NCBI GenBank assembly: GCA_041487935.1
Contig: JBGPOG010000001.1
Location: 1-32,016 of the forward strand
Direction: 5' to 3'
Length of the DNA stretch: 32,016 nucleotides
Source: Chthonomonadia bacterium
GTDB taxonomy: Bacteria; Armatimonadota; Chthonomonadetes; Chthonomonadales; CAJBBX01
Under the pieces are notes generated by a model. It made no database searches. It saw nothing but the letters and a program-made list of their open reading frames with translations, and was not told where the DNA came from. Positions 2,947 to 24,683 of this stretch are shown in pieces. The position numbers and the translations under genes are program-made. Each line of letters starts with the position of its first letter. Position 1 is the first letter of the stretch.

Positions 2947-3693
2947 TTGCGCGGAACCCACGCGCTGTTGAGACCGCTTACAAGAGACTACACGCGAGAA
3001 CCGCAGGTGGTCGCTCAGATTCTCACCATGCAAGGCTTGGAGGATTCTGAGTTTTGGCGGCGCGTTTCGCTTGAGAACCACCTCGATCCGGATTGCCCGT
3101 TTCCGGAAAGTTTGGTTTGCTGGATACGTGAGTTTATGGACCGGGGCGACAGCAGGCGCGCGTGGGACGTTGTCACGGCGCTCGAGCGGCGGGTTGCGCG
3201 GATTGTCGATCGTGGTCTAACGCGAGTTTACGATTTGAGGCAGGATCAGATCGAGGATCTAACGCTGGATCTCATTACGAACCTATATCACGAATGGCTC
3301 AGTCTCGAACCGCCACATGAGTTCTGGGAGATACGGTTTATCTTTTGTCTAAAGCGGAAATTGATTTCGCACGTGAGACGCTTCATTCGCGACCGGGATA
3401 TCGAAGTCGATTTGGCCGGCGGCATTCAATCTGCGGCAGATGCAGAAGATCCGCTTTCGAGGCTCTCAGACCAGCGATCGATCGACACTGAGAATGCCGC
3501 CATTGCCAACGTCGCTCTTGACCAGCTCGGGTATCCGCTTAACCGGGCATTCTTTCTCTACCATTATGGCGAGCTGACGCAGGAGCAGATCGCCAAGGTG
3601 CTTGGAGTTACCGAGCGCACCGTGCGCAATTGGCTTCGAAAGGCGGAAGATCTGCTTGAAATTCGGAGAAGCCAGGAGGGTTACATCCAATGA
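2947..3693 (+). CDS. Sigma-70 family (ECF-like) RNA polymerase sigma factor with an N-terminal extension
   Basis: TTG start at 2947 with GAGGAG 7 nt upstream. An ATG at 3028 is an alternative start. The region-2-like segment is DQIEDLTLDLITNLYHEW...FWEIRFIFCLKRKLISHVRR. The region-4 HTH is LNRAFFLYHYGELTQEQIAKVLGVTERTVRNWLRKAEDLL. Its stop overlaps the next gene's ATG (ATGA at 3690-3693). Confidence 0.8.
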   Translation: MRGTHALLRPLTRDYTREPQVVAQILTMQGLEDSEFWRRVSLENHLDPDCPFPESLVCWIREFMDRGDSRRAWDVVTALERRVARIVDRGLTRVYDLRQDQIEDLTLDLITNLYHEWLSLEPPHEFWEIRFIFCLKRKLISHVRRFIRDRDIEVDLAGGIQSAADAEDPLSRLSDQRSIDTENAAIANVALDQLGYPLNRAFFLYHYGELTQEQIAKVLGVTERTVRNWLRKAEDLLEIRRSQEGYIQ

Positions 3694-4322
3694 GTCGAGA
3701 TATCGATTCGGTGCTGCTTGAATATGACACCGCAGCAGACCAGCCCGGCGGGACAAAACTCGCTGACTGGATCGCGCGGTATCCCGAGTACCAGGACGAT
3801 CTGATCGATTACGCCTATTACAACTTCGTTTTCCAGAAGGGCGAGTCTTATAGGCGAACGGACGCAAAAGCGGCGGGGTATCTAACCCTGGCGGGAGTCG
3901 TACGCGAGCGAATGATGGCAGAAGGCCTATATGCCGCCGGCCGGTCCGCCGATCCGTTGAAAGGAATTCTCATTGCGGCGCGCGCACAAAGCATCGAGCC
4001 TCCTGAATTGGCTCGACGAATCGGGATCGGACTTCCGGTCGTTATCAAGCTCGATCGCCGGCTTATCCGGCCGTCGACGATACCCGTTGAATTGGTTTCC
4101 CGGATCGCTAAAGAGCTCCAGGCTTTCGTTTCGGACGTTTCCGCGTATCTCCGACGACCGCTTACCCTCTCACCACAGGCAAACTACCGGGCTTCGAGCG
4201 CGCCGCAGGTGAGCGCGGCTCAGGATTTTCTGGACGCACTGAATGCGTGTGCAGACGTCTCCGCCGAGCAAAAGGAGTTCTGGAAGAACGAGTCCGGGGT
4301 AGTTCTCGGCGACACGGAGTGA
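3690..4322 (+). CDS. XRE-like helix-turn-helix protein, the partner of the downstream ImmA/IrrE-domain protein
   Basis: 210 aa with an ATG overlapping the sigma gene's stop and AGGAGG 10 nt upstream. The central segment (about nt 3960-4124), PPELARRIGIGLPVVIKLDRRLIRPSTIPVELVSRIAKEL, has the XRE/Cro-type HTH layout. It occupies the position of the HTH partner in the canonical XRE + COG2856 gene pair. Confidence 0.65.
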   Translation: MSRDIDSVLLEYDTAADQPGGTKLADWIARYPEYQDDLIDYAYYNFVFQKGESYRRTDAKAAGYLTLAGVVRERMMAEGLYAAGRSADPLKGILIAARAQSIEPPELARRIGIGLPVVIKLDRRLIRPSTIPVELVSRIAKELQAFVSDVSAYLRRPLTLSPQANYRASSAPQVSAAQDFLDALNACADVSAEQKEFWKNESGVVLGDTE

Positions 4323-4326
4323 TGGT

Positions 4327-7300
4327 ATGACCGGCTGGCCCGCCATTCGATCAGAGGCCCGACGACACCGCCAGGAGAGTCTTGCGAGTGCAGACTCACA
4401 GGGCGGCCTCGTTCCCGCCGAAGAATTGATCGAATGCGCCTTGAACGCAGCGGGATTGTGCCGGCTTGCGCTCCCGTTGGACGATCCTCTGCTGGCAGGC
4501 GCCCATGCGGTTCTGGATCGCCAAGCAGGTTACATCTGGAACCGCGCTGGCCTGTCCCCTGAAACCACTCGCTTTAACATTGCCCACGAGCTTGCTCACT
4601 GGTGGCTTCACTCAGATTCTCGAATGGGATGCAGGGAGGAAGATATCGTCGACTCCCCGGTTGCCGAACCGCTGCCGTTTGGAGAGGCCTATGTCGCGGG
4701 ATACAGCCCCGCACAGCGCAGAGAGGTCGAGGCAAATGTCTTCGCAGCCGAATTTCTGCTCCCCGCTCCGTTGATCGAATCGCTGTTCCTGTCGCCCGAC
4801 CCTCCGAATACGAGCGAGAGTATTGCAGCCGCTATCGGAATCTCGGAAACCGTTGTGTTGGGGCAGATGGCGGAGACGCTGCTCCTGGACGATAGACGAT
4901 GGACGATGGACGATACGTCAATACCTCCGTGCGAAACCGATTCATACATCGTCGATCGTCGATCGTCCATCGTCGACGATCTTGATCCCTCTCAAAAACT
5001 GGCCGCAGAGATGGATCGCGGCCCGGCGCTGATTACGGCAGGGCCCGGAACCGGCAAGACGAGAACGCTGGTCGCTCGCATTCTGGCGCTGCTCGATCGC
5101 GGAGCGGCGCCGGAGCAGATCCTCGCTCTCACATTCTCGAACCGTGCCGCGAACGAGATGAGGTTACGGCTGGCCGAGGTCGTGCCCGCACAGACCCGAC
5201 GGTTGTGGATTGGCACGTTTCACGCGTTCGGCCTGGAGCTTTTGCGGCGATTCGGCACCCGGATTGGTTTGCCGGCCGATCCGAAATTGATAGATCCGGT
5301 GGATGCCGTGTCGCTGCTCGAAAACAACCTCGCGCGGCTCGACCTGGTCGAATATGAATACTTGCATCGCCCCTCGATCCCGTTTCGAGACATATTGTCG
5401 GCAATCTCGCGCGCCAAGGATGAGTTGATTTCGCCGGGACGGTACGCGGAGCTTGCCGAGGCGATGGAGGTCCCAAGCGACGGCAAGGAGCGCGAAGAAG
5501 CCGAGCGCGAACGTTCGAAAGCGCTGGAGGTTGCAAGGGTTTACCGCGTTTATGAAGAGATCCTCAGCGAGAAAGGCTTGCTCGATTTTGGAGATCTCAT
5601 TTATCGGGCTGTCGAGCTATTGAAAACCTATCCCGATGTGGCTGGTCTGGTACATAAAGAGTTCCGCCATCTGCTCGTCGATGAATACCAGGACATCAAT
5701 CGCGGCAGCGCGGTTCTTCTGAAGCTGGTCGTCGGAGAGGGTGAAGGCCTGTGGGCCGTGGGCGACCTTCGGCAGGCTATCTACCGATTCCGAGGCGCAT
5801 CTCCCGCCAATGTCAGCGCATTTGAAGAGGACTATCCTACTGGCAAAGAGCTTTCGCTCGAAATAAACTACCGGTCGCAGCCGAAACTGGTAGATCTCTT
5901 TAGCTGCGCTTCCAGGCAAATCTCCGCCGGTTCGGATTACGACGGGTGGCGCGCATTCCGAAACTCTACCGAATCGTCACTCATCTATGCCGAGGCCGAA
6001 GACGAAGCCGCCCACGCTGACGGCATCGCCCGGTCCATTCGGAATTTCGAGGTAGATGGATTCTCCCTCAACGATCAGGCAGTTCTTTGCAGGACAAACG
6101 CACAGGCAGACTGCCTTGCACGGGAATTGGAAGCCCGCAGCATACCGGTTCTCCATCTGGGTGGGCTGTTCGAACGCCCGGAAGTGAAAGATATGCTTTC
6201 GCTCCTCTCGCTGGCGGTGGAGCCCGGCGGATCGGGCATCGCCCGGGCGGCAGCCATTGACGAGTACCGCATGACAACCGAACAAGTAGCCGGTATTTTG
6301 GCGCGGGCAAGCGAAACCGGGGACGGTGTGGTTGCAGCATCAAAGGGTTCGCCGGAAGAGCAGCTTCCGGCATTCGGCCTGCTTAACAGCCATCTCTATC
6401 CGATTGCCTATCGAGGCGACGCCTGGGCATTCATCGCGCGGTATCTATTCGGACCGGCGCGATATCTTCGCGACAAGATTCGTGCCGGCACCGTCACAAA
6501 TCGCCAGGCGCGCCTTGCGCTCTATCAGCTTCTATTGACGGCAAAGGCCTTTTCGAGCAAAACAAGCATAGCGGTCTCCCAAGATGACGGCAAAAACGAT
6601 CACCCTCAGCGAGCATTTTTGGCGCATATTCGGCATCTTGTCTCAATTGGCGAGGACACGAGGGTGCGAGTACCAGGTGCGGCAGGCGGCCCGCCAGCCG
6701 TACGCATCATGACGATACATGCCTCAAAAGGGCTGGAATTCCCGGTGGTATTCCTACCCAACCTGTCGCAAGGCCAGTTTCCGAGCCGAAAGCGTGGGGG
6801 ACTCGTAAAGCTTCCGCCGGGCTTTGTGCCGGAACAGGAAGACTCCGATCGGCAGGAAGATGAATGCCTGTTTTTCGTCGGGCTATCGAGAGCTCGCGAT
6901 CATCTGGTCCTTACCCGCGCGAGAACGAGAAACGGCAAACAAATACAGCCGTCTCCACTCTTATCGTTGATCGAGGATCGATTCGAAGCCATTGGCGGCC
7001 TGAAAGAACAGTGGGGGACGGAACCGAACGTGAACGTTGAATTGCATGATGGGAACGTCGAATTCGCGGTGAGCGCGAGTATCCTAAGCAGTCCTGGTGC
7101 GGAGCAGGCTCCTTCAGTTTCCAGCGCGCATGCATTGGAAGAGTATATGAGCTGTCCCCGGAAGTACTTTTATTCAAGAGTGTTGAATTTAAGAAATGCC
7201 GGCGAGACGACGCCTTACGCCGCCTTCCACAAGTGCCTTTGGAATGTCATTCGGTGGTGGAGAGGTGAGCGCGAGGCGGGGAGAGTGCCCGGCAGAGTTG

Positions 7301-7821
7301 AGCTGGAAGCCCGGCTAAGTGACGAGTGGCAATCCTTCGGGCCGGATCCCGAGCATCCGCACGAGCAAGTACTGCGGGCCAGGGCAAACCGGATCGTTAC
7401 GAATCTCACTGAGGAAACGGTGGAGATGCCCGACGATCCCGCGCTTCGAAGAGTCGAAGCGAAGCTGCACGGATCGGTTGTGAGGGTAGAGCCGGACGCC
7501 ATCGGTATCAGCATCGAGGGAGGAATTGTCGTAGAAAAGTGGCATGCGGGCAAGCCCCGAGACAGCCATCGAAACTCCCCGAGACTCGCGCTGATTCGCG
7601 AGGGAGTGCGGCAAGAGCATGGCCGCGCGCCGGAGGAGATAAGACTGCGATACCTGACGACCGGCGAAACGCTAACCATCAAGGAGCAGCCGCGTTACGA
7701 GCCTGCTAGAGTCGCAAAATACGAAGAATCGCTCATAGGAATTGAAGCCGGCGAGTTTGGCGCCAGGCCGTCGTCGGACGAATGCCCGCATTGCCCGTTT
7801 TTCTTTATTTGCCCGGCTTAG
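4327..7821 (+). CDS. Fusion protein: ImmA/IrrE (COG2856) HEXXH metallopeptidase + UvrD/PcrA-type SF1 helicase + Cas4/AddB-type Fe-S PD-(D/E)XK nuclease
   Basis: 1164 aa with an ATG start and GGAG 7 nt upstream.
- Protease: HELAH at nt 4585-4599, plus EVEANVFAAEFLLP.
- Helicase: GPGTGKT (5041-5061), LALTFSNRAANEM, IGTFHAFG, DEYQD (5680-5694), GDLRQAIYRFRGA, INYRSQ, IHASKGLEFPVVFL, FFVGLSRARDHLVL.
- Nuclease: CPRKYFY (Cys at 7153-7155), then PDAIGISIEGGIVVEKW, then a terminal CPHCPFFFIC, which is a Cx2Cx5C motif (7783-7812). Confidence 0.9.
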   Translation: MTGWPAIRSEARRHRQESLASADSQGGLVPAEELIECALNAAGLCRLALPLDDPLLAGAHAVLDRQAGYIWNRAGLSPETTRFNIAHELAHWWLHSDSRMGCREEDIVDSPVAEPLPFGEAYVAGYSPAQRREVEANVFAAEFLLPAPLIESLFLSPDPPNTSESIAAAIGISETVVLGQMAETLLLDDRRWTMDDTSIPPCETDSYIVDRRSSIVDDLDPSQKLAAEMDRGPALITAGPGTGKTRTLVARILALLDRGAAPEQILALTFSNRAANEMRLRLAEVVPAQTRRLWIGTFHAFGLELLRRFGTRIGLPADPKLIDPVDAVSLLENNLARLDLVEYEYLHRPSIPFRDILSAISRAKDELISPGRYAELAEAMEVPSDGKEREEAERERSKALEVARVYRVYEEILSEKGLLDFGDLIYRAVELLKTYPDVAGLVHKEFRHLLVDEYQDINRGSAVLLKLVVGEGEGLWAVGDLRQAIYRFRGASPANVSAFEEDYPTGKELSLEINYRSQPKLVDLFSCASRQISAGSDYDGWRAFRNSTESSLIYAEAEDEAAHADGIARSIRNFEVDGFSLNDQAVLCRTNAQADCLARELEARSIPVLHLGGLFERPEVKDMLSLLSLAVEPGGSGIARAAAIDEYRMTTEQVAGILARASETGDGVVAASKGSPEEQLPAFGLLNSHLYPIAYRGDAWAFIARYLFGPARYLRDKIRAGTVTNRQARLALYQLLLTAKAFSSKTSIAVSQDDGKNDHPQRAFLAHIRHLVSIGEDTRVRVPGAAGGPPAVRIMTIHASKGLEFPVVFLPNLSQGQFPSRKRGGLVKLPPGFVPEQEDSDRQEDECLFFVGLSRARDHLVLTRARTRNGKQIQPSPLLSLIEDRFEAIGGLKEQWGTEPNVNVELHDGNVEFAVSASILSSPGAEQAPSVSSAHALEEYMSCPRKYFYSRVLNLRNAGETTPYAAFHKCLWNVIRWWRGEREAGRVPGRVELEARLSDEWQSFGPDPEHPHEQVLRARANRIVTNLTEETVEMPDDPALRRVEAKLHGSVVRVEPDAIGISIEGGIVVEKWHAGKPRDSHRNSPRLALIREGVRQEHGRAPEEIRLRYLTTGETLTIKEQPRYEPARVAKYEESLIGIEAGEFGARPSSDECPHCPFFFICPA
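4888..4981. repeat. Inverted array of heptamer repeats inside the CDS: (GACGATN)x4, 32-nt spacer, (ATCGTCN)x4
   Basis: Left units are at 4888, 4895, 4902 and 4909 (gacgata, gacgatg, gacgatg, gacgata). Right units are at 4948, 4955, 4962 and 4969 (atcgtcg, atcgtcg, atcgtcc, atcgtcg), followed by acgatc. All eight hexamer cores are perfect, and the two arms are reverse complements of each other. Confidence 0.8.
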
Positions 7822-7837
7822 GAGATCATTAGCATAT

Positions 7838-8599
7838 ATGTTCAGGCTTGATGGGAAGGTCGCGCTCGTAACCGGCGCGGGATCGGGAATTGGCGAAGAG
7901 ATTGCGCGGAAGTTTGTCGCCCAGGGCGCAACTGTCATCGTGGCGGATATCGACGAGGCGGCGGGACACCGCGTCAACGATTCATTGGGGCCGTTGGCGC
8001 CCTTCCAAAGGCTCGACGTGACCGGCGCGGACGACTTTCAGGCCGCAGTTACTCTTGCGGCTGACCGGTTCGGCAAGCTCGACATTCTCGTGAACAACGC
8101 CGGAATCGGGCTCGTCGGAAATGTCGAAGAGACTTCGGATGAGGATTTCGGCCGCCTTCTGAATGTCAACGTGACGGGGGTGTTCCACGGCTGCAAATGC
8201 GCGGTCCCAATCATGGTGGCGCAAGGCGGTGGAAACATCATCAACATCGGTTCCGTCGCCGGCCTCGTTGCGATCGAACGGCGCTTTGCCTACAGCGCGA
8301 CCAAAGGCGCGGTAATTGCGCTGACCCGCCAGCTTGCCATGGACTATGTTTCCAAAGGGATTCGCTGCAACTGCATATGCCCGGGGACGGTCTACACACC
8401 GTTCGTCGATTCCTATCTGGAGAAGTTTCACGCGGGCGAAGTCGAAGAAACCAAAGCGAAGCTTCATGCGCGCCAGCCGATGGGGCGAATGGGCCGGCCC
8501 GACGAAATCGCGACGATGGCAGTATATCTGGCGTCTGACGAGTCAGAGTTCGTAACCGGAGCGGTTCTGCCTATCGACGGTGGCCTAACTGCGCGATAA
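7838..8599 (+). CDS. Short-chain dehydrogenase/reductase (SDR) family oxidoreductase
   Basis: I prefer the ATG at 7838 (MFRLDGKVALVTGAGSGIGEEIA). The track's start at 7742 would overlap the helicase gene. Motifs TGxxxGxG, NNAG and the catalytic YSATK are present. Confidence 0.9.
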   Translation: MFRLDGKVALVTGAGSGIGEEIARKFVAQGATVIVADIDEAAGHRVNDSLGPLAPFQRLDVTGADDFQAAVTLAADRFGKLDILVNNAGIGLVGNVEETSDEDFGRLLNVNVTGVFHGCKCAVPIMVAQGGGNIINIGSVAGLVAIERRFAYSATKGAVIALTRQLAMDYVSKGIRCNCICPGTVYTPFVDSYLEKFHAGEVEETKAKLHARQPMGRMGRPDEIATMAVYLASDESEFVTGAVLPIDGGLTAR

Positions 8600-8624
8600 T
8601 AACGGATTGAAATGGTGAATATCG

Positions 8625-9866
8625 ATGAGGATGCGTAAGAGGTCCGCCACAAACGGCCTATCGGACAGTCCATATCTCTCGGAAGCCCTGAAGGTCGCAT
8701 ACTATCACTGCGTTCTAGAGATGCCCCTCAAGTCCATCGCCGAAATGCTGGGCAAGAGCCCGGCGACGATCACCCGGCGGCTTGACGAAGTCCGCCAGGC
8801 CGGGTGGCTCCGCGATCATCCCGAGTTTAGCCCTCCGCCTGAAATCTGGCGCGAGCTGCAAGGCCGCATGACCTGCTCCGACATTGAGAACGGCCTGCTC
8901 GATCACTTTGGCAGGGAAGTGTTAAAGCGAGTTACGGTCCTGCCGTCTCTCCCCAAGCAGGGCATCCGGCATCCCGTCGAAGCCAGCCCGGAGAACGTCG
9001 AACGCGTGGGGTTGTATGCGGCACAAAGGTTATGCGAGACTCTCGCCGATGGTGCGCACGTGGTGGGGGTCAACTGGGGCTGGTCGGTTCGCCACTGTGT
9101 TACCACGCTGAGGCCTAGCCGCCCAAACCCAGACCTGAGGTTCATTCCGCTGATCGGCAACTTGAGCCTGGATGAAAACGATCCCCATTTCGAGGAGGCG
9201 ATCGACTGTTCCAGCAATCGTCTTGCCCAAATCGCTGCGTCTGCATTCGGCGCGCCCCGCGCACCGCGATTGAGCACTCCGGCGTATATTCCCAGGAGGT
9301 TTCACAGCGATGCGCGCGGTCTTCGGGCAATCCGCGATTTCATCGAGAGCGATATCTCATTCCGACGGATATTTGGCGGGGCAGATGAAACAGGCATTCC
9401 TCAGACAGGATTGATCGAACAGGTCGATACAATCGTGACCGGCATGAGCTCGATCGACGTGGAAACTCTACCTATCTACCGGCCTAACCTTATCACGCCT
9501 AACGACGTGGAGGTGCTCGAAAGGGCCGGCGTAGTGGGCGACCTGGCATTGCACCTCGTCGTTGAAGATGCACCGGTCAAACGATCGGAGGAAGAAAGCC
9601 TGGTTCATTCGATAAACGGACTGATCGTAGGTGCGTCACCTGCGGATTTCATTCGAATTGCGGAGCGCGCGCGCTCGAGCGGCGCGAGCGGATTGGGGGT
9701 CGTTGTCCTATCCGTGGGCGCGTGGAAGGCGCGAATTCTGTCCACCGCCATCCGGCTTCGCGCGGTAAACGAGCTCATCACCGATCTCGAAACCGCGCTC
9801 GCGGTTGGCAAGCACGCCGGAATCAGTTTTCCCACCGGATCCTATCTCCCAGGAGGAAGAAGATGA
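8625..9866 (+). CDS. SorC/CggR-family sugar-binding transcriptional regulator
   Basis: The N-terminal HTH is LKVAYYHCVLEMPLKSIAEMLGKSPATITRRLDEVRQAG. Blocks typical of the SorC sugar-binding domain follow: VGVNWGWSV, IPLIGNLS, GVVGDLALHLV, and VVVLSVGAWKARILSTAIRLRAVNELITDLETA. Its stop overlaps the pgi start. Confidence 0.8.
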   Translation: MRMRKRSATNGLSDSPYLSEALKVAYYHCVLEMPLKSIAEMLGKSPATITRRLDEVRQAGWLRDHPEFSPPPEIWRELQGRMTCSDIENGLLDHFGREVLKRVTVLPSLPKQGIRHPVEASPENVERVGLYAAQRLCETLADGAHVVGVNWGWSVRHCVTTLRPSRPNPDLRFIPLIGNLSLDENDPHFEEAIDCSSNRLAQIAASAFGAPRAPRLSTPAYIPRRFHSDARGLRAIRDFIESDISFRRIFGGADETGIPQTGLIEQVDTIVTGMSSIDVETLPIYRPNLITPNDVEVLERAGVVGDLALHLVVEDAPVKRSEEESLVHSINGLIVGASPADFIRIAERARSSGASGLGVVVLSVGAWKARILSTAIRLRAVNELITDLETALAVGKHAGISFPTGSYLPGGRR

Positions 9867-11317
9867 GCGCGGACCAAAACTCGCCGCTCGAATTCGACGC
9901 GACCGCAGCCACCGCTCTTCTCGAAAGCGGCGTCAACCGCGCGCATCTGGCTGAACTCGACCAACGGGTAGACGCGATCCAACAGGCATTCGCAGCCGAA
10001 CAGCAGCAAGGCTACGCCACCCTTGAGCGCAACTTGCGGGCGTGGACGCAGAGCCACCTCCGCAAGGACGAAATCGAGGCCACCATTGCGCTGGCAGGGC
10101 GGGTTCGAAATAAGTTTGCGGCGTTCATTCTCGTCGGAATTGGTGGGTCGGATCTTGGCGGGCGAACGCTGCACGATTCTCTGGATCATCCATTCCATAA
10201 CCAGCTATCCCCCGAGCGGCGGGGCTGCCGTCCGGACGGAACCGGCGGAGCGCCGGAGATCTATTTCACCGGCGACACATTCGACCCAAAGCGGTTGCTC
10301 GGCCTTTTGGATCTTCTGGAAACGCGCGGACTGCTCGACAAGACTTGTGTCGATGTCGTCAGCAAATCCGGCAAGACCGGTGAAACCATCGCCGCCGCCA
10401 TGGTGATCCGAGAGCGGATGGAGCAGGCAGGGATTAAGGATTGGACCCAGCGTTTCGTCGCCACCACCGGCCAGAACGATCGGAGCGTATTATTCAAGAT
10501 GAACCAGTCTGCGCCTTTTTTCGGGATGCTGCCGGTTCCGGAAGGTGTGGGCGGCCGGTTCAGCTTCGCTTCGCCGGTAGGACTGCTGCCGTTCGCGGTG
10601 ACGGCGGTTGATGAATTGCCCGCCGAACGAGTAAAGAGCGCCCTGGCGGGATACGCGGAAGCGCACCGGCGATTCCTGCTGCCGGCTAACGATCCGTCGA
10701 ACATTGCTTGCCAACTCGCCCGCTGGTGGCAATTGGGAGAGCAGTTCTGCCACAAGACGGATATGCTCTTCAGCAACTACGCCGATGACGCCCGGATCGG
10801 AGATTGGTTCACACAGCTCTACGAAGAGAGCGTGCAGGAGCGTGGCGGCGGGATAAACGTGATCGGCACGCGAGGCCCCACCGGCAATCACTCCATTCTG
10901 AACGGTATCCTGCGAGGGCCGCACGATAAGCTGGTGATGCTTGTCCACTGGGCGGACCTCGGAAGAGGAACTCAGATTCCGACGGGCACCGGAATCGGAG
11001 GCGACCTGAAGTACTTCGAAGGACTTTCACTGAATTCGGTGCAAAGCGCCTCTTGCCGGGCGACTGCTGCGGACTTCCTCGCCAACGGCGTGCCGACGGC
11101 GACGGTTCAGGTGAGCGGGCGGGACACTTACCACACAGTCTTACTTATGCGAACGCTAATGGATGCCGTTGCCATTAAGGGTAGATTACAATACCTTCAC
11201 GTCAGCGCCAAAGGAGAGCCGGATCCCGCTACAGACCTCACCTATCAGCAGGACGGAGTGGAAGGGTACAAAATTGGCACGCGGAAGAACGCTGAGGAGA
11301 TGCAGAAGCAGTTGTAG
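9863..11317 (+). CDS. pgi: Glucose-6-phosphate isomerase
   Basis: ATG at 9863, in an ATGA overlap with the SorC stop, with AGGAGG upstream. PGI motifs are ILVGIGGSDLGGR and VVSKSGKTGETIAA. The track's start at 9722 is an upstream in-frame extension inside the SorC gene. Confidence 0.9.
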   Translation: MSADQNSPLEFDATAATALLESGVNRAHLAELDQRVDAIQQAFAAEQQQGYATLERNLRAWTQSHLRKDEIEATIALAGRVRNKFAAFILVGIGGSDLGGRTLHDSLDHPFHNQLSPERRGCRPDGTGGAPEIYFTGDTFDPKRLLGLLDLLETRGLLDKTCVDVVSKSGKTGETIAAAMVIRERMEQAGIKDWTQRFVATTGQNDRSVLFKMNQSAPFFGMLPVPEGVGGRFSFASPVGLLPFAVTAVDELPAERVKSALAGYAEAHRRFLLPANDPSNIACQLARWWQLGEQFCHKTDMLFSNYADDARIGDWFTQLYEESVQERGGGINVIGTRGPTGNHSILNGILRGPHDKLVMLVHWADLGRGTQIPTGTGIGGDLKYFEGLSLNSVQSASCRATAADFLANGVPTATVQVSGRDTYHTVLLMRTLMDAVAIKGRLQYLHVSAKGEPDPATDLTYQQDGVEGYKIGTRKNAEEMQKQL

Positions 11318-11550
11318 GCAGGCCGTCGCTGAATTCGAACGGAATTGTTTGGTTGGGACCCTGGAGTCCCTCACGACTTGCCGTCATCGATGCTGCCCCT
11401 GAGGAACAGTAGATCGATGTCGCCGGCCCAAGTAACGGATGGGAGCGCTGGCCTGCCTCGGACCTGATGCCGATTTGGGATGGGTTCGCGCCTATCTTGG
11501 AGCAAACATAGCACAATCGATGATGTGAAATTCTCGACTGGAGAGTAACT

Positions 11551-12570
11551 TTGATTTTCATCTGCCCGTTGGTAGCGATGTGTACAATACCGGCTCCTGA
11601 GCACACCTCTGTTAGCGTCACCGTCAGCGGTCATCCCCGCCGCATCGTCACCGACGCAGGCGCCGGCGGTTATCAGGCTTTCCCCGATGTCTGCCGCCTC
11701 AAGAATGGCGAGCTGTTTTGCGTTTTCTACGCGGGATACACGCACGTCTCGCTTCCAAACGCACAACTGCCGAAAGGAGGACGGATTTGCGCGATTCGCT
11801 CGTCCGACGAAGGGAAAACGTGGAGCAGCCCACAAACCATCATCGACACGTCCTTCGACGACCGCGATCCTTCCGTATGCTGCCTGCCGGACGGCGCCCT
11901 TCTCTGTAACTTCTTCAAGTACTCTGCCAATACCGCGGCGGATACGTGCATTTCTCGATCGACCGACGACGGAATGACCTGGAGCGAGCCGGATATGATC
12001 GCGCCGAGCTTTGCGACCTCTACACAGATACGGCGGCTTCGATCGGGCCGTCTGGTGCTGCCGGTCTATACCGTCGACGGGGCCAAACGCGCGTTTGCGG
12101 CGGTATGTCTGTCCGACGATCGCGGCCGGACCTGGAGCGGCCCACACCCCATCGGATTGAACGCCGGCAAGACGCTGGACGAAACCGACGTTTACGAGAG
12201 GAAGGACGGCACGCTGCTGGCCGTCATGCGCGAGGTGATGTGCGGCTCAGAGTCCAGGGACCGCGGCAAGACGTGGGGGCCGGTTTTTGACCTGGGGTTT
12301 CCCGGACACTGCCCTTGTTTGCTGATGACGCGGTCGGGCGTTCTTTTGATGGCTCATCGGCTGCCGGGGACGTCACTGCACTACAGCCTGGATGAGGGCC
12401 GAACGTGGCAAGGGCCGGTTAAGATCGACAACGTTATCGGCGCCTATCCGAGCCTGCTGGAGCTGCGTAATGGCCGAGTCCTTTGCGTCTACTACGAGGA
12501 AGGGAAGGGCTCCGCTATTCGGGCGGTCGAGCTATCCGTGACAAAAAATCGCCCGGCCTCGAAGGAGTAA
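11551..12570 (+). CDS. BNR/Asp-box repeat beta-propeller protein (sialidase-like fold)
   Basis: Five Asp-box motifs are present: SSDEGKTW, STDDGMTW, SDDRGRTW, SRDRGKTW, SLDEGRTW. TTG start with GGAGAG 6 nt upstream; an ATG at about 11578 is an alternative. I saw no clear FRIP motif or signal peptide, so sialidase activity is not asserted. Confidence 0.85.
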   Translation: MIFICPLVAMCTIPAPEHTSVSVTVSGHPRRIVTDAGAGGYQAFPDVCRLKNGELFCVFYAGYTHVSLPNAQLPKGGRICAIRSSDEGKTWSSPQTIIDTSFDDRDPSVCCLPDGALLCNFFKYSANTAADTCISRSTDDGMTWSEPDMIAPSFATSTQIRRLRSGRLVLPVYTVDGAKRAFAAVCLSDDRGRTWSGPHPIGLNAGKTLDETDVYERKDGTLLAVMREVMCGSESRDRGKTWGPVFDLGFPGHCPCLLMTRSGVLLMAHRLPGTSLHYSLDEGRTWQGPVKIDNVIGAYPSLLELRNGRVLCVYYEEGKGSAIRAVELSVTKNRPASKE

Positions 12571-12736
12571 CCGGGCTCAAGTGCACGCAATGGGTAGACG
12601 TGTACATCCGGTCAGACGGCGCGTGTTGATGGGATGTTCCCAAAATCCGCAATATTCTTAAGATTCACCAAAGATACGTCTATATGGAGACCGTTAAATA
12701 GCGCGACACTCAAGCGGTCTCGCCTCTTCACGCCGG

Positions 12737-13089
12737 TTATTTAGAGTCCACAATCTCACCGGGCGGTAGCAGTGCTGACACTGCAGCCTCAATCCCTGGG
12801 ACCGTCCTCGTCACGGTGGACCATACCTTGCCGTAGTGGATAGCATCTAAACGTGGATGTAGAAGTTTCGAAGCTTGATGAGGAACTCCCAGTCGACCTG
12901 TGTATGTGCGCTTCGGAAACCCGCAGAAACTCGGGATGCCGTCTCTCCCATAATCTCTAACTCACGCACGACCGCAGCCTTCGTCTAATCATCCAATAGA
13001 AACTCCGCGCGGCTAATACCCTCAACGTATCGGCTGCGCCTCCGAGCGGCGTTGCGGATATCCTCGAGCGAGATCTCATCCTTTCGCAT
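12737..13089 (-). pseudogene. Disrupted HEPN (DUF86-type) toxin gene of a HEPN/MNT module
   Basis: The ATG at 13089 overlaps the MNT stop by 14 nt. The frame reads MRKDEISLEDIRNAARRRSRYVEGISRAEFLLDD, then an in-frame TAG (12985-12987), then TKAAVVRELEIMGETASRVSAGFRSAHTQVDWEFLIKLRNFYIHV. That segment contains the Rx4H HEPN motif RNFYIH. A second TAG follows at 12847-12849. The C-terminal part, DAIHYGKVWSTVTRTVPGIEAAVSALL...*, continues in another frame, consistent with a 1-nt deletion in a TAY codon. The reconstructed length of about 116 aa is typical for DUF86. Confidence 0.8.
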
Positions 13090-13393
13090 AAATAGGCTCC
13101 ATGGTCGAGAAAATCTCCTTCTTAAGGAACCTGTTTTCGCTCGCCTCGATGCCTTCCCGATCCAGAACGTCAACCTCGCGGCCTAGGATCCTTGCCAGCT
13201 CGTCCTGCATCCGAAAGTGATCGGCCAAATCCCAATTCGCATCGGCCTCATGCACCACTACAAAATCCACGTCGCTATCAGGACCGAAATCGTCGCGTGT
13301 CACCGAACCGAAGATACTTAAACTCTCAATTTTCCACTTCAGGCAGAATTCCAGAATGGCAGACGAATCGAATTTGATCCCATGCTTCGTCAT
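13076..13393 (-). CDS. MNT-type minimal nucleotidyltransferase (antitoxin-like partner of HEPN)
   Basis: 105 aa with an ATG start. The Pol-beta-superfamily motif is IFGSVTRDDFGPDSDVDFVV (GS-x-DxD). It overlaps the start of the downstream HEPN remnant, as in canonical MNT-HEPN operons. Confidence 0.85.
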   Translation of the reverse strand: MTKHGIKFDSSAILEFCLKWKIESLSIFGSVTRDDFGPDSDVDFVVVHEADANWDLADHFRMQDELARILGREVDVLDREGIEASENRFLKKEIFSTMEPIYAKG

Positions 13394-13573
13394 TGTATTG
13401 CCTTTCTGGCCATCATTGTATCACAGCCACGACAACTTGGTTCTCCTTAGAAGCAACCCTAGTGCGAATATGCGGGTTAGTGTTTCAAAAATCAGCGGCT
13501 TATGGTCGTCCGTCCATTGTGCAGAGTGACGGTCCGACAATTTGGCTGTCGTTTTCAATAATGGCGTGTGCGA

Positions 13574-13822
13574 TTAGCTCGCTACGAACAGCTCTCGAAG
13601 TAGTGCCGGATTGGAATTGGTTCTTGCGGCCAATGCACGCAGGTTTGACCTAGAGATTGCCGTCGGAAAGCGGGCAGTCACCGACTTAAACTCGAGTCTA
13701 TCTCCGATACTCTCCGCCCATCGACTCAGAGTATATCCAATTGTCTGTCCGTCAACGTTCAGCAATTTGATTGACCGCTTGTGACGTCTCAGACTTGGCG
13801 GGCAGACGGGATTGTAGCTCAT
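13574..13822 (-). CDS. Hypothetical small protein
   Basis: 82 aa with an ATG start and AGGAG 6-7 nt upstream. It lies upstream of the MNT gene within the AT-richer islet. No recognisable domain. Confidence 0.4.
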   Translation of the reverse strand: MSYNPVCPPSLRRHKRSIKLLNVDGQTIGYTLSRWAESIGDRLEFKSVTARFPTAISRSNLRALAARTNSNPALLRELFVAS

Positions 13823-13954
13823 TAGGTGCTCCTACAGGGCCAATTCCTTACTTAACACAGCAGAACCCAAATCGAATCGGCCAGCGTGCAAAATGGTCCG
13901 AGCAGAATAGTGCCCGGACCCTAGCCATTGCGATCGCCAAAAGAAGCAATTACT

Positions 13955-13975
13955 CCCCTCCCGATTCGGGAGGGG
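13955..13975 (-). terminator. Putative intrinsic terminator downstream of ftsZ
   Basis: GC-rich hairpin cccctcccg (13955-13963) / cgggagggg (13967-13975) with a 3-nt loop, about 45 nt after the ftsZ stop. On the minus strand a T-rich tract (ttgcttctttt) follows after 5 nt, not immediately. Confidence 0.45.
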
Positions 13976-14021
13976 TTATGCAGCTATCTTCTCGCACGAA
14001 CCATTACGGGGTGGGATTCGC

Positions 14022-15203
14022 CTACCGTCTCCGCAGAAACGCCGGAATATCCAAATCGTTTTCGTTGACCGTCTTGACGGTCGGTTCTGCCGGTTCCGTT
14101 ATCTGGTTCAGTGCCGGGGGAGACTGCGGCGGCTGTGGAACCTGCTGGCGGATTACGGGCGGGGTTTCCAGTTGCTTCGCCGTGGGATGCGGCTGAGGCA
14201 CGGTTTGAGCCGCATGAGCATGTCCCTGCTGGCCGCGGTGCCCGGAGAATCCGGTTGCCAGCACGGTCACTCGAACCTGCCCCTCCATGCCGGAGTCGGA
14301 CACCCAGCCGAAGATGATGTTGGCTTCCTTGCGGTCGCACAGCTCGTTGATGAGCAGCGCCGCTTCGTTTGCCTCGGCCAGGGTCAGATCCGGACCCGAT
14401 GTCACGTTGATGAGCACTCTCAAGGCGCCCTCGATGGAGGTTTCCAAGAGCGGGCTGGAGATGGCGGCTTGCGCGGCTTCGACCGCCCGATGATCGCCGC
14501 TGGCGATGCCGATTCCCATCAGCGCCGAGCCCGCGTTCGACATGATGGTCTTGACGTCCGCGAAGTCCACGTTGATCTGGCCGGGGATTGTGATGATATC
14601 GGAAATTCCCTGAACGCCCTGCCTCAGCACGTCATCCGCCACTCGGAATGCCTCCACAAGCGTCATGCGCTTGTCCCCGACGGACAGCAGCTTGTCGTTC
14701 GGGACGATGATCACCGTATCGACTTTGGCTTTCAGATTGTCCACACCCTCTTCCGCGAGCCGCATCCTCCGAGGGCCTTCGAAGTTAAACGGCTTGGTGA
14801 CGACTGCCACCGTCAGCGCGCCGATCTCGCGGGCGATTTCCGCGATTACCGGGGCTGCTCCGGTGCCGGTGCCGCCACCCATGCCGGCCGTGATGAAAAC
14901 CATGTCCGCGCCATCCATAGCCTTCTTGATTTCGCTCTTGCTCTCTTCAGCGGCGCTTCGGCCGATCTCAGGGTTGCCGCCGGCGCCCAATCCCCGGGTC
15001 AAGTTTTCGCCGAGCTGCATTTTCAAGGGAGCCAGCGCGATGTTGAGCACCTGGCGATCGGTATTCATTGCCAGGAAGTCGACTCCCGTTAAGCCGGATT
15101 CTATCATCCGGTTAACAGCGTTCGTCCCGCCGCCACCGACGCCTATGACCTTGATATGCGCGCCTACGGTCTCTTCGAACCGCCCCCCGCTGAAACCTGA
15201 CAT
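14022..15203 (-). CDS. ftsZ: Cell division GTPase FtsZ
   Basis: Motifs [13 protein letters not shown] and the tubulin signature [16 protein letters not shown] are present. A P/Q-rich linker leads to the conserved C-terminal peptide [12 protein letters not shown] prefer the ATG at 15203 over the track's TTG at 15209. Confidence 0.97.
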
Positions 15204-24053: not shown

Positions 24054-24683
24054 CTAAAACTCGTCTGATTCGTCGGCCGGGTGAATATCGGTGGCGACCA
24101 ATTCTTTCCAAAGCGACTCAACTGCGGGATTAGCGTCAAGGCGTATTAGCTTCTCCGTAACGGCTCCGGAATCAGACTTGAGTTCGGGGAATTCAAGCAA
24201 TAGCATCGCGATATCTCGCCAATCCGTTCCAGCTTTTGGGTTGCCGCGACGAGCATAATAAGAGATCACTTTGCTCGCGATCAAGTCCACTGGTGACAAT
24301 ACTTGAATGTCAGCGATTTTACGTGACTCCGGTAGTTTGTCGACGGGTCGAATGTCAACAAGATGCCGATTGCCGGTCTTTTGGACCTGGAACAGCCGAA
24401 ACCCACGACCCTGACCAATCTCCCTGATTCGAACTGCAATGTGAAAGTGGCTGCTGATATGTTCGCGCAGCTCATCGGCAAGCTCGCGAGCCCGTGTAGA
24501 CATAATGTCAATGTCCTGCGTCATTCGCGGCTCATTCACATAGGCATTAACGGCTTGAGCGCCAAAGAGTACGGCGTCTTCGCGGCCACGCAAAAACTCG
24601 AGCACCCTTTCGTGAATCGTTGCGAGCGGCAGCGGTTCTCTCAACTCAAACTCCTTGAAAGCGAGTGCGCCCGAGCCGAACAT
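24054..24683 (-). CDS. Nucleotidyltransferase-fold protein (Pol-beta superfamily, AbiEii/DUF-type), with no cognate partner nearby
   Basis: 209 aa with an ATG start and AAGGAG 7 nt upstream. The NTase motif is LFGAQAVNAYVNEPRMTQDIDI (G-x-A...T-x-D-I-D). The C-terminal helical region includes KAGTDWRDIAMLLL. No AbiEi-like or HEPN-like neighbour is present. Confidence 0.6.
   Translation of the reverse strand: MFGSGALAFKEFELREPLPLATIHERVLEFLRGREDAVLFGAQAVNAYVNEPRMTQDIDIMSTRARELADELREHISSHFHIAVRIREIGQGRGFRLFQVQKTGNRHLVDIRPVDKLPESRKIADIQVLSPVDLIASKVISYYARRGNPKAGTDWRDIAMLLLEFPELKSDSGAVTEKLIRLDANPAVESLWKELVATDIHPADESDEF

Follow-up and report, generated by a model that had tools for sequence, protein, structure and literature searches.

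The 32,016-nucleotide (nt) stretch of DNA analyzed here (the window; positions 1 to 32,016 of contig JBGPOG010000001.1, assembly GCA_041487935.1, from a Chthonomonadia bacterium) carries an uninterrupted open reading frame (ORF) at positions 4327 to 7821 (+ strand). It encodes a protein of 1164 amino acids (aa) in which an M78 zinc metalloprotease, a superfamily 1 (SF1) helicase, and a degenerate iron-sulfur (Fe-S) nuclease-like domain are fused. Directly before it lie genes for a sigma factor and for a small protein with an Xre-type helix-turn-helix (HTH) fold. By analogy with known M78 systems, the fusion protein is probably the sensor-protease of a three-gene transcriptional switch, which would cleave the HTH protein, a putative anti-sigma factor, to enable sigma-dependent transcription. 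This context, together with the Bil and Bub operons that adjoin the cassette in relatives, went unseen in an earlier note on this DNA and is its most interesting content.

The N-terminal domain (residues 1 to 190; 4327 to 4896, + strand) is of the ImmA/IrrE/CapP type. Its Pfam match to Peptidase_M78 (PF06114, 8e-11) covers residues 63 to 177 and, at 42.2 bits, clears the gathering score of 22; its best sequence matches in the PDB are IrrE (3dte) and CapP (7t5t). The HExxH motif, HELAH (residues 87 to 91; 4585 to 4599, + strand), is invariant in alignments of 22 and 111 sequences. The third zinc ligand, E133 (4723 to 4725, + strand), aligns to E113 of IrrE in a phmmer alignment to 3dte and falls in the downstream block EVEANVFAAEFLLP (4723 to 4764, + strand), which was read from the translation. 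In an alignment of 145 family members, on which the conservation figures given here are based, H87, E88, H91, and E133 are each at least 97% conserved. By all sequence criteria, the fusion protein is a member of Peptidase M78. Neither Pfam nor the AlphaFold2 model places a GAF domain after the protease; instead, a disordered linker (residues 194 to 209) runs into the helicase.

The helicase core is UvrD/PcrA-like and belongs to SF1A (residues about 219 to 905; 4981 to 7041, + strand), with all of its motifs intact. Pfam assigns UvrD-helicase (PF00580, 5e-64) to residues 219 to 504 and UvrD_C (PF13361) at 6e-35, and with AAA_19 these matches span residues 219 to 865. The segments SQKLAA, GPGTGKT, TFSNRAANEM, GTFHAFG, DEYQD, GDLRQAIYRFRGA, NYRSQ, IHASKGLEFP, and VGLSRARDHL were all located. 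Motifs Q, I, Ia, II, III, IV, V, and VI are present and at least 97% conserved in the family, as are the individual residues K244, D452, E453, Q483, R516, and R855. Scores against the NCBIfam equivalog models fell far under the cutoffs for PcrA (306 versus 911 bits), UvrD (259 versus 1144), and Rep (255 versus 951), and also far below those for AddA and RecB. The helicase is of the SF1A, UvrD-like kind, and the equivalog scores set it apart from the orthologues of UvrD, PcrA, and Rep.

An AlphaFold2 model of the whole protein, built with 111 homologues, is confident (mean pLDDT, 89.5; pTM, 0.92), and its disorder is confined to two interdomain linkers, at residues 194 to 209 and 910 to 919. 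Foldseek searches with this model returned UvrD, PcrA, and Rep as the top matches, followed by AddA, AdnA/B, RecB, and AddB. The single ORF and all motif positions given in the earlier note were correct, and its reading of three domains in one polypeptide agrees with Pfam matches above the gathering scores for M78, UvrD-helicase, and PDDEXK_1. Its assignment of HELAH and the block downstream of it to a COG2856 protease, like its full set of SF1 motifs, is upheld by the conservation of these residues. Both the protease and the helicase part look catalytically competent, and the covalent fusion is genuine and selectively maintained.

The C-terminal domain (residues 925 to 1164; 7099 to 7818, + strand) has a RecB/AdnA-type PD-(D/E)XK fold, with a PDDEXK_1 match (PF12705, 1.3e-11) over residues 933 to 1163 at 45 bits against a gathering score of 22. 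Four cysteines are its predicted Fe-S ligands: C943 (7153 to 7155, + strand), in the segment CPRKYFY (7153 to 7173), and C1153, C1156, and C1162, which form a Cx2Cx5C motif (within 7783 to 7812, + strand). All four are 99 to 100% conserved, and cluster binding itself is predicted from this sequence pattern. A PDB search with the single sequence gave only spurious ribosomal-protein matches, and a family profile was needed. The profile matched the nuclease domain of mycobacterial AdnA with an E value of 4e-7, in an alignment that covers the C-terminal CxxCx5C, and matched AdnB (2e-3) and Cas4 (0.06) less well; the C-terminal cysteine triad of AdnA aligns with C1153, C1156, and C1162.

The nuclease active site, by the same comparison, has been lost. 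The catalytic D934-x-K936 of AdnA (VVVDLKTGK) falls on residues 1071 and 1073 of the fusion protein, and because the PDB holds both the wild type and a D934A mutant of AdnA (VVVALKTGK), this placement is unambiguous. At these positions, where active relatives have D-x-K, the window has a degenerate motif III, K1071-W-H1073 (7537 to 7545, + strand). Across the family, residue 1071 is Arg in 72% and residue 1073 is Arg in 46% of sequences, and [DE]xK occurs anywhere in the motif III strand in only 2 of 145. The Q-x3-Y positions are likewise degenerate: residue 1086 is R, I, or V and residue 1090 is Y (38%), L (31%), or I (15%), with R and I in the window. The sole surviving nuclease motif residue is D1057 (7495 to 7497, + strand), the motif II Asp (GxhD), which aligns to the Asp of AdnA GRLDRLE and is kept in 92% of the family. 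The earlier note had proposed an AddB/Cas4-type nuclease with every catalytic motif intact, listing the cysteines only; the four-cysteine arrangement and the RecB fold stand, and the active site does not. Since motif III fails, we place the domain outside the RecB/AdnA nuclease family and regard it, on its sequence features, as a nuclease-derived Fe-S DNA-binding module, a derivative of the RecB/AdnA fold.

Relatives that have no M78 domain keep a canonical hhD(Y/F)KTG at motif III, so nuclease chemistry was lost specifically in the protease-fused lineage. These helicase-nucleases, of about 950 to 1050 aa (loci L026, L048, L049, L052, L067, L073, L074, and L080), occur in genomes of the Candidate Phyla Radiation (CPR), Saccharibacteria, and Melainabacteria; they retain the Fe-S cysteines along with D(Y/F)KTG and have no sigma or HTH neighbors. 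Such proteins probably reflect the ancestral state, an active helicase-nuclease in a single chain.

The sigma factor gene of the cassette (2947 to 3693, + strand; 248 aa) encodes a sigma-70/ECF (extracytoplasmic function)-like protein with an N-terminal extension. Its sigma-2 and sigma-4 regions match above cutoff: the protein scores 48 bits against TIGR02937 (cutoff, 42.9; residues 81 to 235) and 37.8 against Pfam Sigma70_r4_2 (gathering score, 25.7; 1.5e-9). Its start codon is TTG, preceded at 7 nt by a GAGGAG Shine-Dalgarno sequence. Its stop codon is overlapped by 4 nt (ATGA) by the gene for the HTH protein (3690 to 4322, + strand; 210 aa), and the ATG of the fusion gene follows the end of that gene with a spacing of 4 nt. 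This overlap and spacing indicate that the three genes form one operon in which the fusion gene is translationally coupled.

The arrangement recurs across bacteria. Neighbor clustering of full-length loci, followed by hidden Markov model (HMM) searches, was applied to 33 M78-bearing and 9 M78-less loci, and the cassette loci come from Armatimonadota, Chloroflexi, Acidobacteria, Verrucomicrobia, and Alpha-, Beta-, and Gammaproteobacteria. A sigma gene lies upstream in 31 of the 33 M78-bearing loci, an HTH gene also in 31, and both in 30; none of the 9 M78-less loci has the sigma and HTH genes. The sigma gene of L010 and the HTH gene of L007, which are among the exceptions to these counts, were recovered in other tests.

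The 210-aa protein, predicted to be the protease substrate and an anti-sigma factor or repressor, has no family match in Pfam, NCBIfam, or PADLOC. These proteins of about 200 aa evolve fast, with about 20 to 25% identity between clades. A word-indexed homology search with the window's sequence found only 3 relatives, and in its place homologues were gathered by synteny and a profile search was run; the profile gave only weak Xre matches in the PDB, with which the later fold search agreed. In the AlphaFold2 model, a small N-terminal helical domain is followed by a flexible linker, a five-helix bundle at residues 90 to 155 (3957 to 4154, + strand) with pLDDT above 93, a low-confidence stretch, and C-terminal helices. 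Every Foldseek match was an Xre HTH (SinR, P22 c2, 434 Cro, ClgR, HipB, DdrO 6rnz, and CapH 7t5u), with probabilities of 0.9 to 0.99, target TM-scores of 0.6 to 0.75, and a root mean square deviation of about 2 Å. The Xre HTH is the fold of the known M78 substrates DdrO (cut by IrrE), CapH (cut by CapP), and ImmR.

Outside its folded parts, the HTH protein has a single strongly conserved linear motif, S-(Y/F)-(K/R)-A-x3-P. In the window it reads ANYRASSAP (residues 164 to 172; 4179 to 4205, + strand) and lies in a flexible segment of low pLDDT. Because CapP cuts CapH at F82|R83, likewise between an aromatic and a basic residue, the Y|R bond of ANYRASSAP can be put forward, by this analogy only, as a candidate cleavage site. 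The main argument that a gene in this position acts on a sigma factor comes from L010, where the homologue is a 385-aa protein with an N-terminal zf-HC2 domain bearing the ZAS motif HxxxCxxC (AHLERCTRC), fused to the same HTH and SFRADRAPE module, and where a sigma-like ORF precedes the gene. The L010 cassette variant (3696 to 14621) lies beside a DNA-methylase-like gene, HicB, and the BREX protease BrxL, neighbors that indicate that the cassette also occurs in defense islands without ubiquitin-like (Ubl) systems. Another HTH gene, in the long-read metagenome-assembled genome of L003 (5062 to 5915), is split in two overlapping ORFs, through a frameshift or an assembly error; that locus has HNH, RE_BstXI-like, and methylase genes downstream of its Bil operon.

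A Bil or Bub operon lies directly downstream of the fusion gene in 22 of the 33 M78-bearing loci, on the same strand and at a distance of 40 to 210 nt. Nine of these are BilABCD operons (BilA_UBL, BilB-like E2, Prok-JAB, and BilD E1) and 13 are Bub ("6e") operons (Multi_ubiq, Prok-E2_E or DUF6791, ThiF E1, and DUF6527/BubE). The linked loci include Acinetobacter lwoffii pNL1, Aminobacter pSR7, and Escherichia coli CP61_Sichuan, as well as Rhizobium-group plasmids and chromosomes of Kluyvera, Aeromonas, and Pseudomonas. Existing annotation of the cassette goes no further than a UvrD-like helicase and hypothetical proteins.

A bipartite motif specific to the cassette, TT(T/A)CCGG-N16-18-CGATT(A/G), starts a few bases past the helicase stop codon in the gap before these operons. 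As a strict regular expression, it matched 40 times in 27 loci, against 4.65 matches expected from shuffles, and about 30 of the 40 lie at two fixed positions on the cassette strand. One of these is the gap after the helicase gene. The other is upstream of the sigma gene in Bil-type loci and L024, and in Bub-type loci it falls inside the sigma gene, toward its 3' end and about 200 nt ahead of the HTH gene (L008, L009, L012, L014, L015, L019, L022, L072, and L084). The embedded copy coincides with the sigma-4 peptide (F/Y)R-x5-AID-x-LP, so protein constraint accounts for part of its conservation. Its synonymous sites are nonetheless unusually fixed (Ala GCG in 11 of 12, Ile ATT in 11 of 11, and Arg CGG in 8 of 12), whereas other equally conserved Ala and Ile columns use 3 to 4 codons. 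This suggests that the embedded copy is an internal promoter, whose feedback would reach the HTH and protease genes and leave out the sigma gene.

The motif is -35/-10-like and is presumably recognized by the cassette sigma factor. Where the sigma proteins are more divergent, the motif takes a different, T-rich form, as would be expected of sigma-promoter coevolution, and a sigma-70 consensus scan found no match at the cassette promoters. Just past the -10 element of the Bub-operon promoter, several loci have short inverted repeats (L012, 9270 to 9300; L084, 9270 to 9295; L014; L019; and L022), such as GGCGAA-ATAA-TTCGCC and CCAGAA-AATTCC-TTCTGG. The repeat sequences vary between loci, and the other promoter of each locus has no such repeat; a hairpin in the 5' untranslated region or an operator may account for them.

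In the window and its closest relatives (L001 and L086 to L089; 49 to 57% identity), the cassette stands alone among housekeeping genes. Only in this clade, a small gene for a 102-aa protein is conserved divergently upstream of the sigma gene (2326 to 2634, - strand); tblastn relates its product to the syntenic proteins of L001 and L086 to L089 (E value, 3e-22), and it has no Pfam match. The divergent region of roughly 250 nt contains two copies of the clade variant of the motif, TTTCCG[GCA]-N16-18-GAGT[AG]. One copy, TTTCCGC-N17-GAGTA (2888 to 2916, + strand), faces the cassette 30 nt upstream of the sigma gene and is found in the same place in L001, L086, L088, and L089. The other, TTTCCGG-N18-GAGTA (2817 to 2846, - strand), is back to back with it and faces the 102-aa gene. 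In six loci, 11 of 11 matches to the clade motif fall within the divergent region, against 1.5 expected over 109 kb. From this placement, the regulon of the clade is predicted to be the cassette itself and the 102-aa gene, which is probably the output gene of the switch there. Matches to the strict motif at 20980 (- strand) and 24995 (+ strand) of the window are intragenic and near chance expectation and were set aside as noise.

The fusion family is widespread. In a collection of 5.8 billion proteins, the best 120 homologues were full-length, with 39 to 57% identity and, in nearly all, the same Pfam architecture; at least 120 full-length homologues with this architecture were counted. Their names go no further than "UvrD-helicase domain-containing protein" or "superfamily I helicase / Zn-dependent peptidase ImmA." When just the C-terminal domain was searched for exhaustively, it gave 541 clusters at the 50% identity level. 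Among species-representative genomes, full-length copies were found in Acidobacteria, Chloroflexi, Armatimonadota, and Verrucomicrobia, and further ones are in Caulobacter, Sphingomonas, Mesorhizobium, Lichenicoccus, Nitrosomonas, Collimonas, Methylococcaceae, Pseudomonas, Aeromonas, and Kluyvera; the family spans at least six phyla. Copies covering at least 80% of the protein are carried by at least 46 plasmids. A phage collection yielded no full fusion, only matches to the helicase core. At blastn sensitivity, 1 of 5,426 complete E. coli genomes was positive, in an island flanked by insertion sequences (IS). In that locus (L090; E. coli CP61_Sichuan chromosome, 1333195 to 1347312), IS1 and IS4-family elements enclose the full cassette and a Bub operon; fimH and cueO are close by, and the locus offers a convenient experimental entry point. 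The architecture is that of a common family which is uncharacterized and keeps its N-terminal catalytic residues; it is not that of a characterized repair helicase.

In the mechanism that we propose, the helicase and Fe-S module would take the place of the GAF sensor of the CapP/IrrE proteases and would load on single-stranded DNA (ssDNA) or DNA ends that arise when DNA is damaged or a phage replicates. In AddB-type enzymes, DNA-end binding requires the Fe-S domain. ATP-driven engagement of DNA would activate the fused M78 protease, which would cut the HTH protein; S-(Y/F)|(K/R)-A is the probable cleavage site, and this cleavage would free or derepress the sigma factor. The sigma factor would then transcribe promoters that bear the motif, those of the Bil and Bub operons elsewhere and those of the cassette and the 102-aa gene in the window's clade. 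The coupling of proteolysis to DNA within one molecule, proposed in the earlier note, stays the best reading; what that note called a motor-nuclease is better described as a motor joined to a nuclease-derived Fe-S module. The proposal rests on analogy with ImmA/ImmR, IrrE/DdrO, and, above all, CapP/CapH. In the last of these, ssDNA activates CapP, CapH is cut at F82|R83, and adjacent immune operons, including 6e/Bub, are derepressed (Lau et al. 2022, bioRxiv 10.1101/2022.04.27.489752; PMC13373217).

Several observations weigh against this proposal. Each of its links is inferred: that the protease is active, what it cuts, which DNA signal triggers it, and that sigma factor and promoter pair. 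No Ubl or other defense operon lies beside the cassette within the 32-kb window or at L001 and L086 to L089, and the output of the cassette in the window is a 102-aa protein without a known domain. L002 alone truly has neither the sigma nor the HTH gene beside its fusion gene. That locus, on a 2.96-Mb contig, has MerR-family and response-regulator receiver genes divergently upstream (3833 to 5616), which may be an alternative regulatory wiring. The E values of the HTH fold search are weak (0.17 to 1.5) despite the high probabilities, an effect of the small size of the domain. Instead of a promoter, the motif could mark a site where the HTH protein binds. The ZAS fusion is present in one locus only, and no operator-like inverted repeat common to both promoters of a locus was found. 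The fusion favors sequestration of the sigma factor, the fold favors DNA binding, and the HTH protein may be an anti-sigma factor or a DNA-bound repressor.

The role of the HTH protein separates the fuller form of the proposal from its nearest alternative. In the fuller form, a nuclease-dead Fe-S helicase senses DNA and gates the M78 protease, an HTH-type anti-sigma factor is destroyed, and a private sigma factor is released; taken with all of these parts, we put it at slightly short of an even chance. In the alternative, the system would be CapH/CapP-like, with the HTH protein bound on or near the motif promoters and an unsequestered sigma factor giving specificity, so that cleavage derepresses them. 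The sensor-protease step is common to both, and the difference is what the HTH protein holds. CapH, DdrO, and ImmR all act as repressors on DNA, the HTH protein has the fold of DNA-binding repressors, and several Bub-operon promoters have inverted repeats just past their -10 element. These points are offset by the lack of a repeat shared by the two promoters of a locus, by the ZAS anti-sigma motif of the L010 homologue, and by the fact that a dedicated sigma factor without a partner would be unusual, and we consider simple repression unlikely.

Two further explanations dispense with the switch, and both fit the dead nuclease, the sigma/HTH linkage, and the distribution less well than the proposed sensor-protease does. 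The protease-helicase might be a stand-alone anti-phage or stress effector, for instance one that degrades proteins on invading DNA or a toxin, with the HTH protein as antitoxin or autoregulator. COG2856-Xre pairs have been discussed as toxin-antitoxin-like modules (PMC2701414), 11 of the 33 loci, the window's clade among them, have no adjacent defense operon, and copies are scattered patchily, some of them on plasmids and in IS-flanked islands. The helicase core is also matched by PADLOC models for GajB and a DRT-associated helicase, but these matches are to the generic UvrD core, and there is no GajA or reverse transcriptase nearby. With the nuclease dead, DNA degradation is unlikely, and the linked sigma factor and the motif at Bil and Bub promoters would be left unexplained; we regard an effector or toxin-antitoxin role as quite improbable. 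A housekeeping double-strand-break repair enzyme of the AdnAB/AddAB/RecBCD type with an incidental protease-like domain would agree with the Foldseek and profile similarity to AdnA/B, AddA/B, and RecB and with the chromosomal housekeeping context of the window (FtsZ, FtsA, and metabolic genes). The family, however, has lost the nuclease active site throughout, has no second-subunit gene, and is linked to sigma and HTH genes. Its patchy, mobile-like spread, with at least 46 plasmids and a single positive among the complete E. coli genomes, and its scores far below the AddA and RecB equivalog cutoffs argue further against a repair enzyme, which we think very improbable.

Among known systems, the cassette most resembles CapH+CapP. 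Both pair an M78 zinc protease with an Xre-type HTH protein near defense operons that include 6e/Bub, the N-terminal domain of the fusion matches CapP (7t5t), and the 210-aa protein matches the N-terminal domain of CapH (7t5u). CapP, however, consists of a peptidase, an HTH-like domain, and a C-terminal GAF sensor, in place of which the fusion has a helicase and Fe-S nuclease-like module of about 950 residues; the cassette also adds a dedicated sigma factor. The capH and capP genes are described as divergent (bioRxiv 10.1101/2022.04.27.489752), whereas the cassette and its downstream operon share one strand. The window's copy, moreover, has no adjacent immune operon, and in the 22 of 33 relatives that adjoin Bil or Bub, its control of them is presumed. 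Because there is no GAF domain, because a helicase and a sigma factor are added, and because of the same-strand layout, the cassette is not a member of CapH+CapP, although it would work like it.

In IrrE (PprI)/DdrO of Deinococcus and ImmA/ImmR of ICEBs1 and phages, a COG2856/M78 protease cuts an Xre repressor upon DNA damage. The fusion shares with IrrE the geometry of HExxH and a Glu ligand, and the HTH of DdrO is a structural match to the 210-aa protein; the IrrE and ImmA proteases, however, are of 170 to 330 aa without a motor, and their outputs are repressor regulons with no dedicated sigma factor. AdnA/AdnB, AddA/AddB, RecB, and Cas4 resemble the rest of the protein in having a UvrD-like SF1 motor followed by a RecB fold and in the 1 + 3 arrangement of cysteines, with AdnA the closest. 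In contrast to AdnA, AddA, and RecB, the fusion is a single polypeptide without a partner subunit, has lost D-x-K and Q...Y, and has gained an N-terminal protease. The ECF sigma/anti-sigma systems (RseA-sigmaE and ZAS) likewise have a dedicated sigma-70-family factor cotranscribed with a small partner that is, in the cassette, predicted to be proteolyzed, and one homologue of the HTH partner has the HxxxCxxC of ZAS anti-sigma factors. The partner in the cassette, however, is cytoplasmic and based on an Xre HTH instead of a canonical anti-sigma domain, its protease is a DNA-motor fusion and not a membrane site 1/site 2 protease, and the promoter consensus is TTTCCGG / CGATTA or GAGTA, compared with the usual ECF AAC / CGT. 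Gabija (GajA+GajB) and the DRT helicase were rejected as candidates, since PADLOC matched only the generic UvrD core and there is no GajA-like partner in the window.

The catalogues of Bub and Bil regulators list CapW/BrxR, CapH+CapP, and CapK+CapS (Corbett-laboratory papers; PMC13373217), three controller families described for CBASS, Bil, and Bub systems, and about half of 544 catalogued Bub operons have none of the three (219 + 59 of 544; PMC13373217). The word "helicase" is absent from the main texts of the Corbett-laboratory papers on Bub/Bil regulators and from the supplement searched, and the primary Bil papers do not mention a helicase. The openly available literature searched on M78, ImmA, or COG2856 together with UvrD, sigma, or anti-sigma contains no description of the fusion or the cassette. 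The cassette and its fusion family would therefore be an undescribed and widespread variant on the ImmA/ImmR, IrrE/DdrO, and CapP/CapH theme.

Other genes of the window include those for FtsZ, FtsA, a short-chain dehydrogenase, a SorC-type regulator, and glycosyl hydrolases; scans of the window for Rfam families and tRNAs found nothing. A region with an AbiEii-like nucleotidyltransferase toxin domain (24054 to 24683, - strand; PF08843, 9e-10), near a 178-aa ORF without matches, may be a type IV toxin-antitoxin system or an Abi remnant unrelated to the cassette.

How anti-phage operons are silenced and switched on is an active question, for which the cassette is a candidate additional controller. 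If this is true, it would be the first helicase motor to be coupled directly to the regulated proteolysis of a sigma factor switch, and it would explain the turning on of many Bil and Bub operons that have no known regulators. Should the model hold, a translocating helicase and a retired nuclease acting as the ligand-binding module of a protease would be a new sensing principle, and the dedicated sigma factor would be a new output for the ImmA/IrrE/CapP paradigm; the C-terminal domain would be a clear example of a nuclease recycled into a sensor. In the Armatimonadota-like clade of the window, the stand-alone cassette points to a nonimmune regulon, possibly one that responds to DNA damage.

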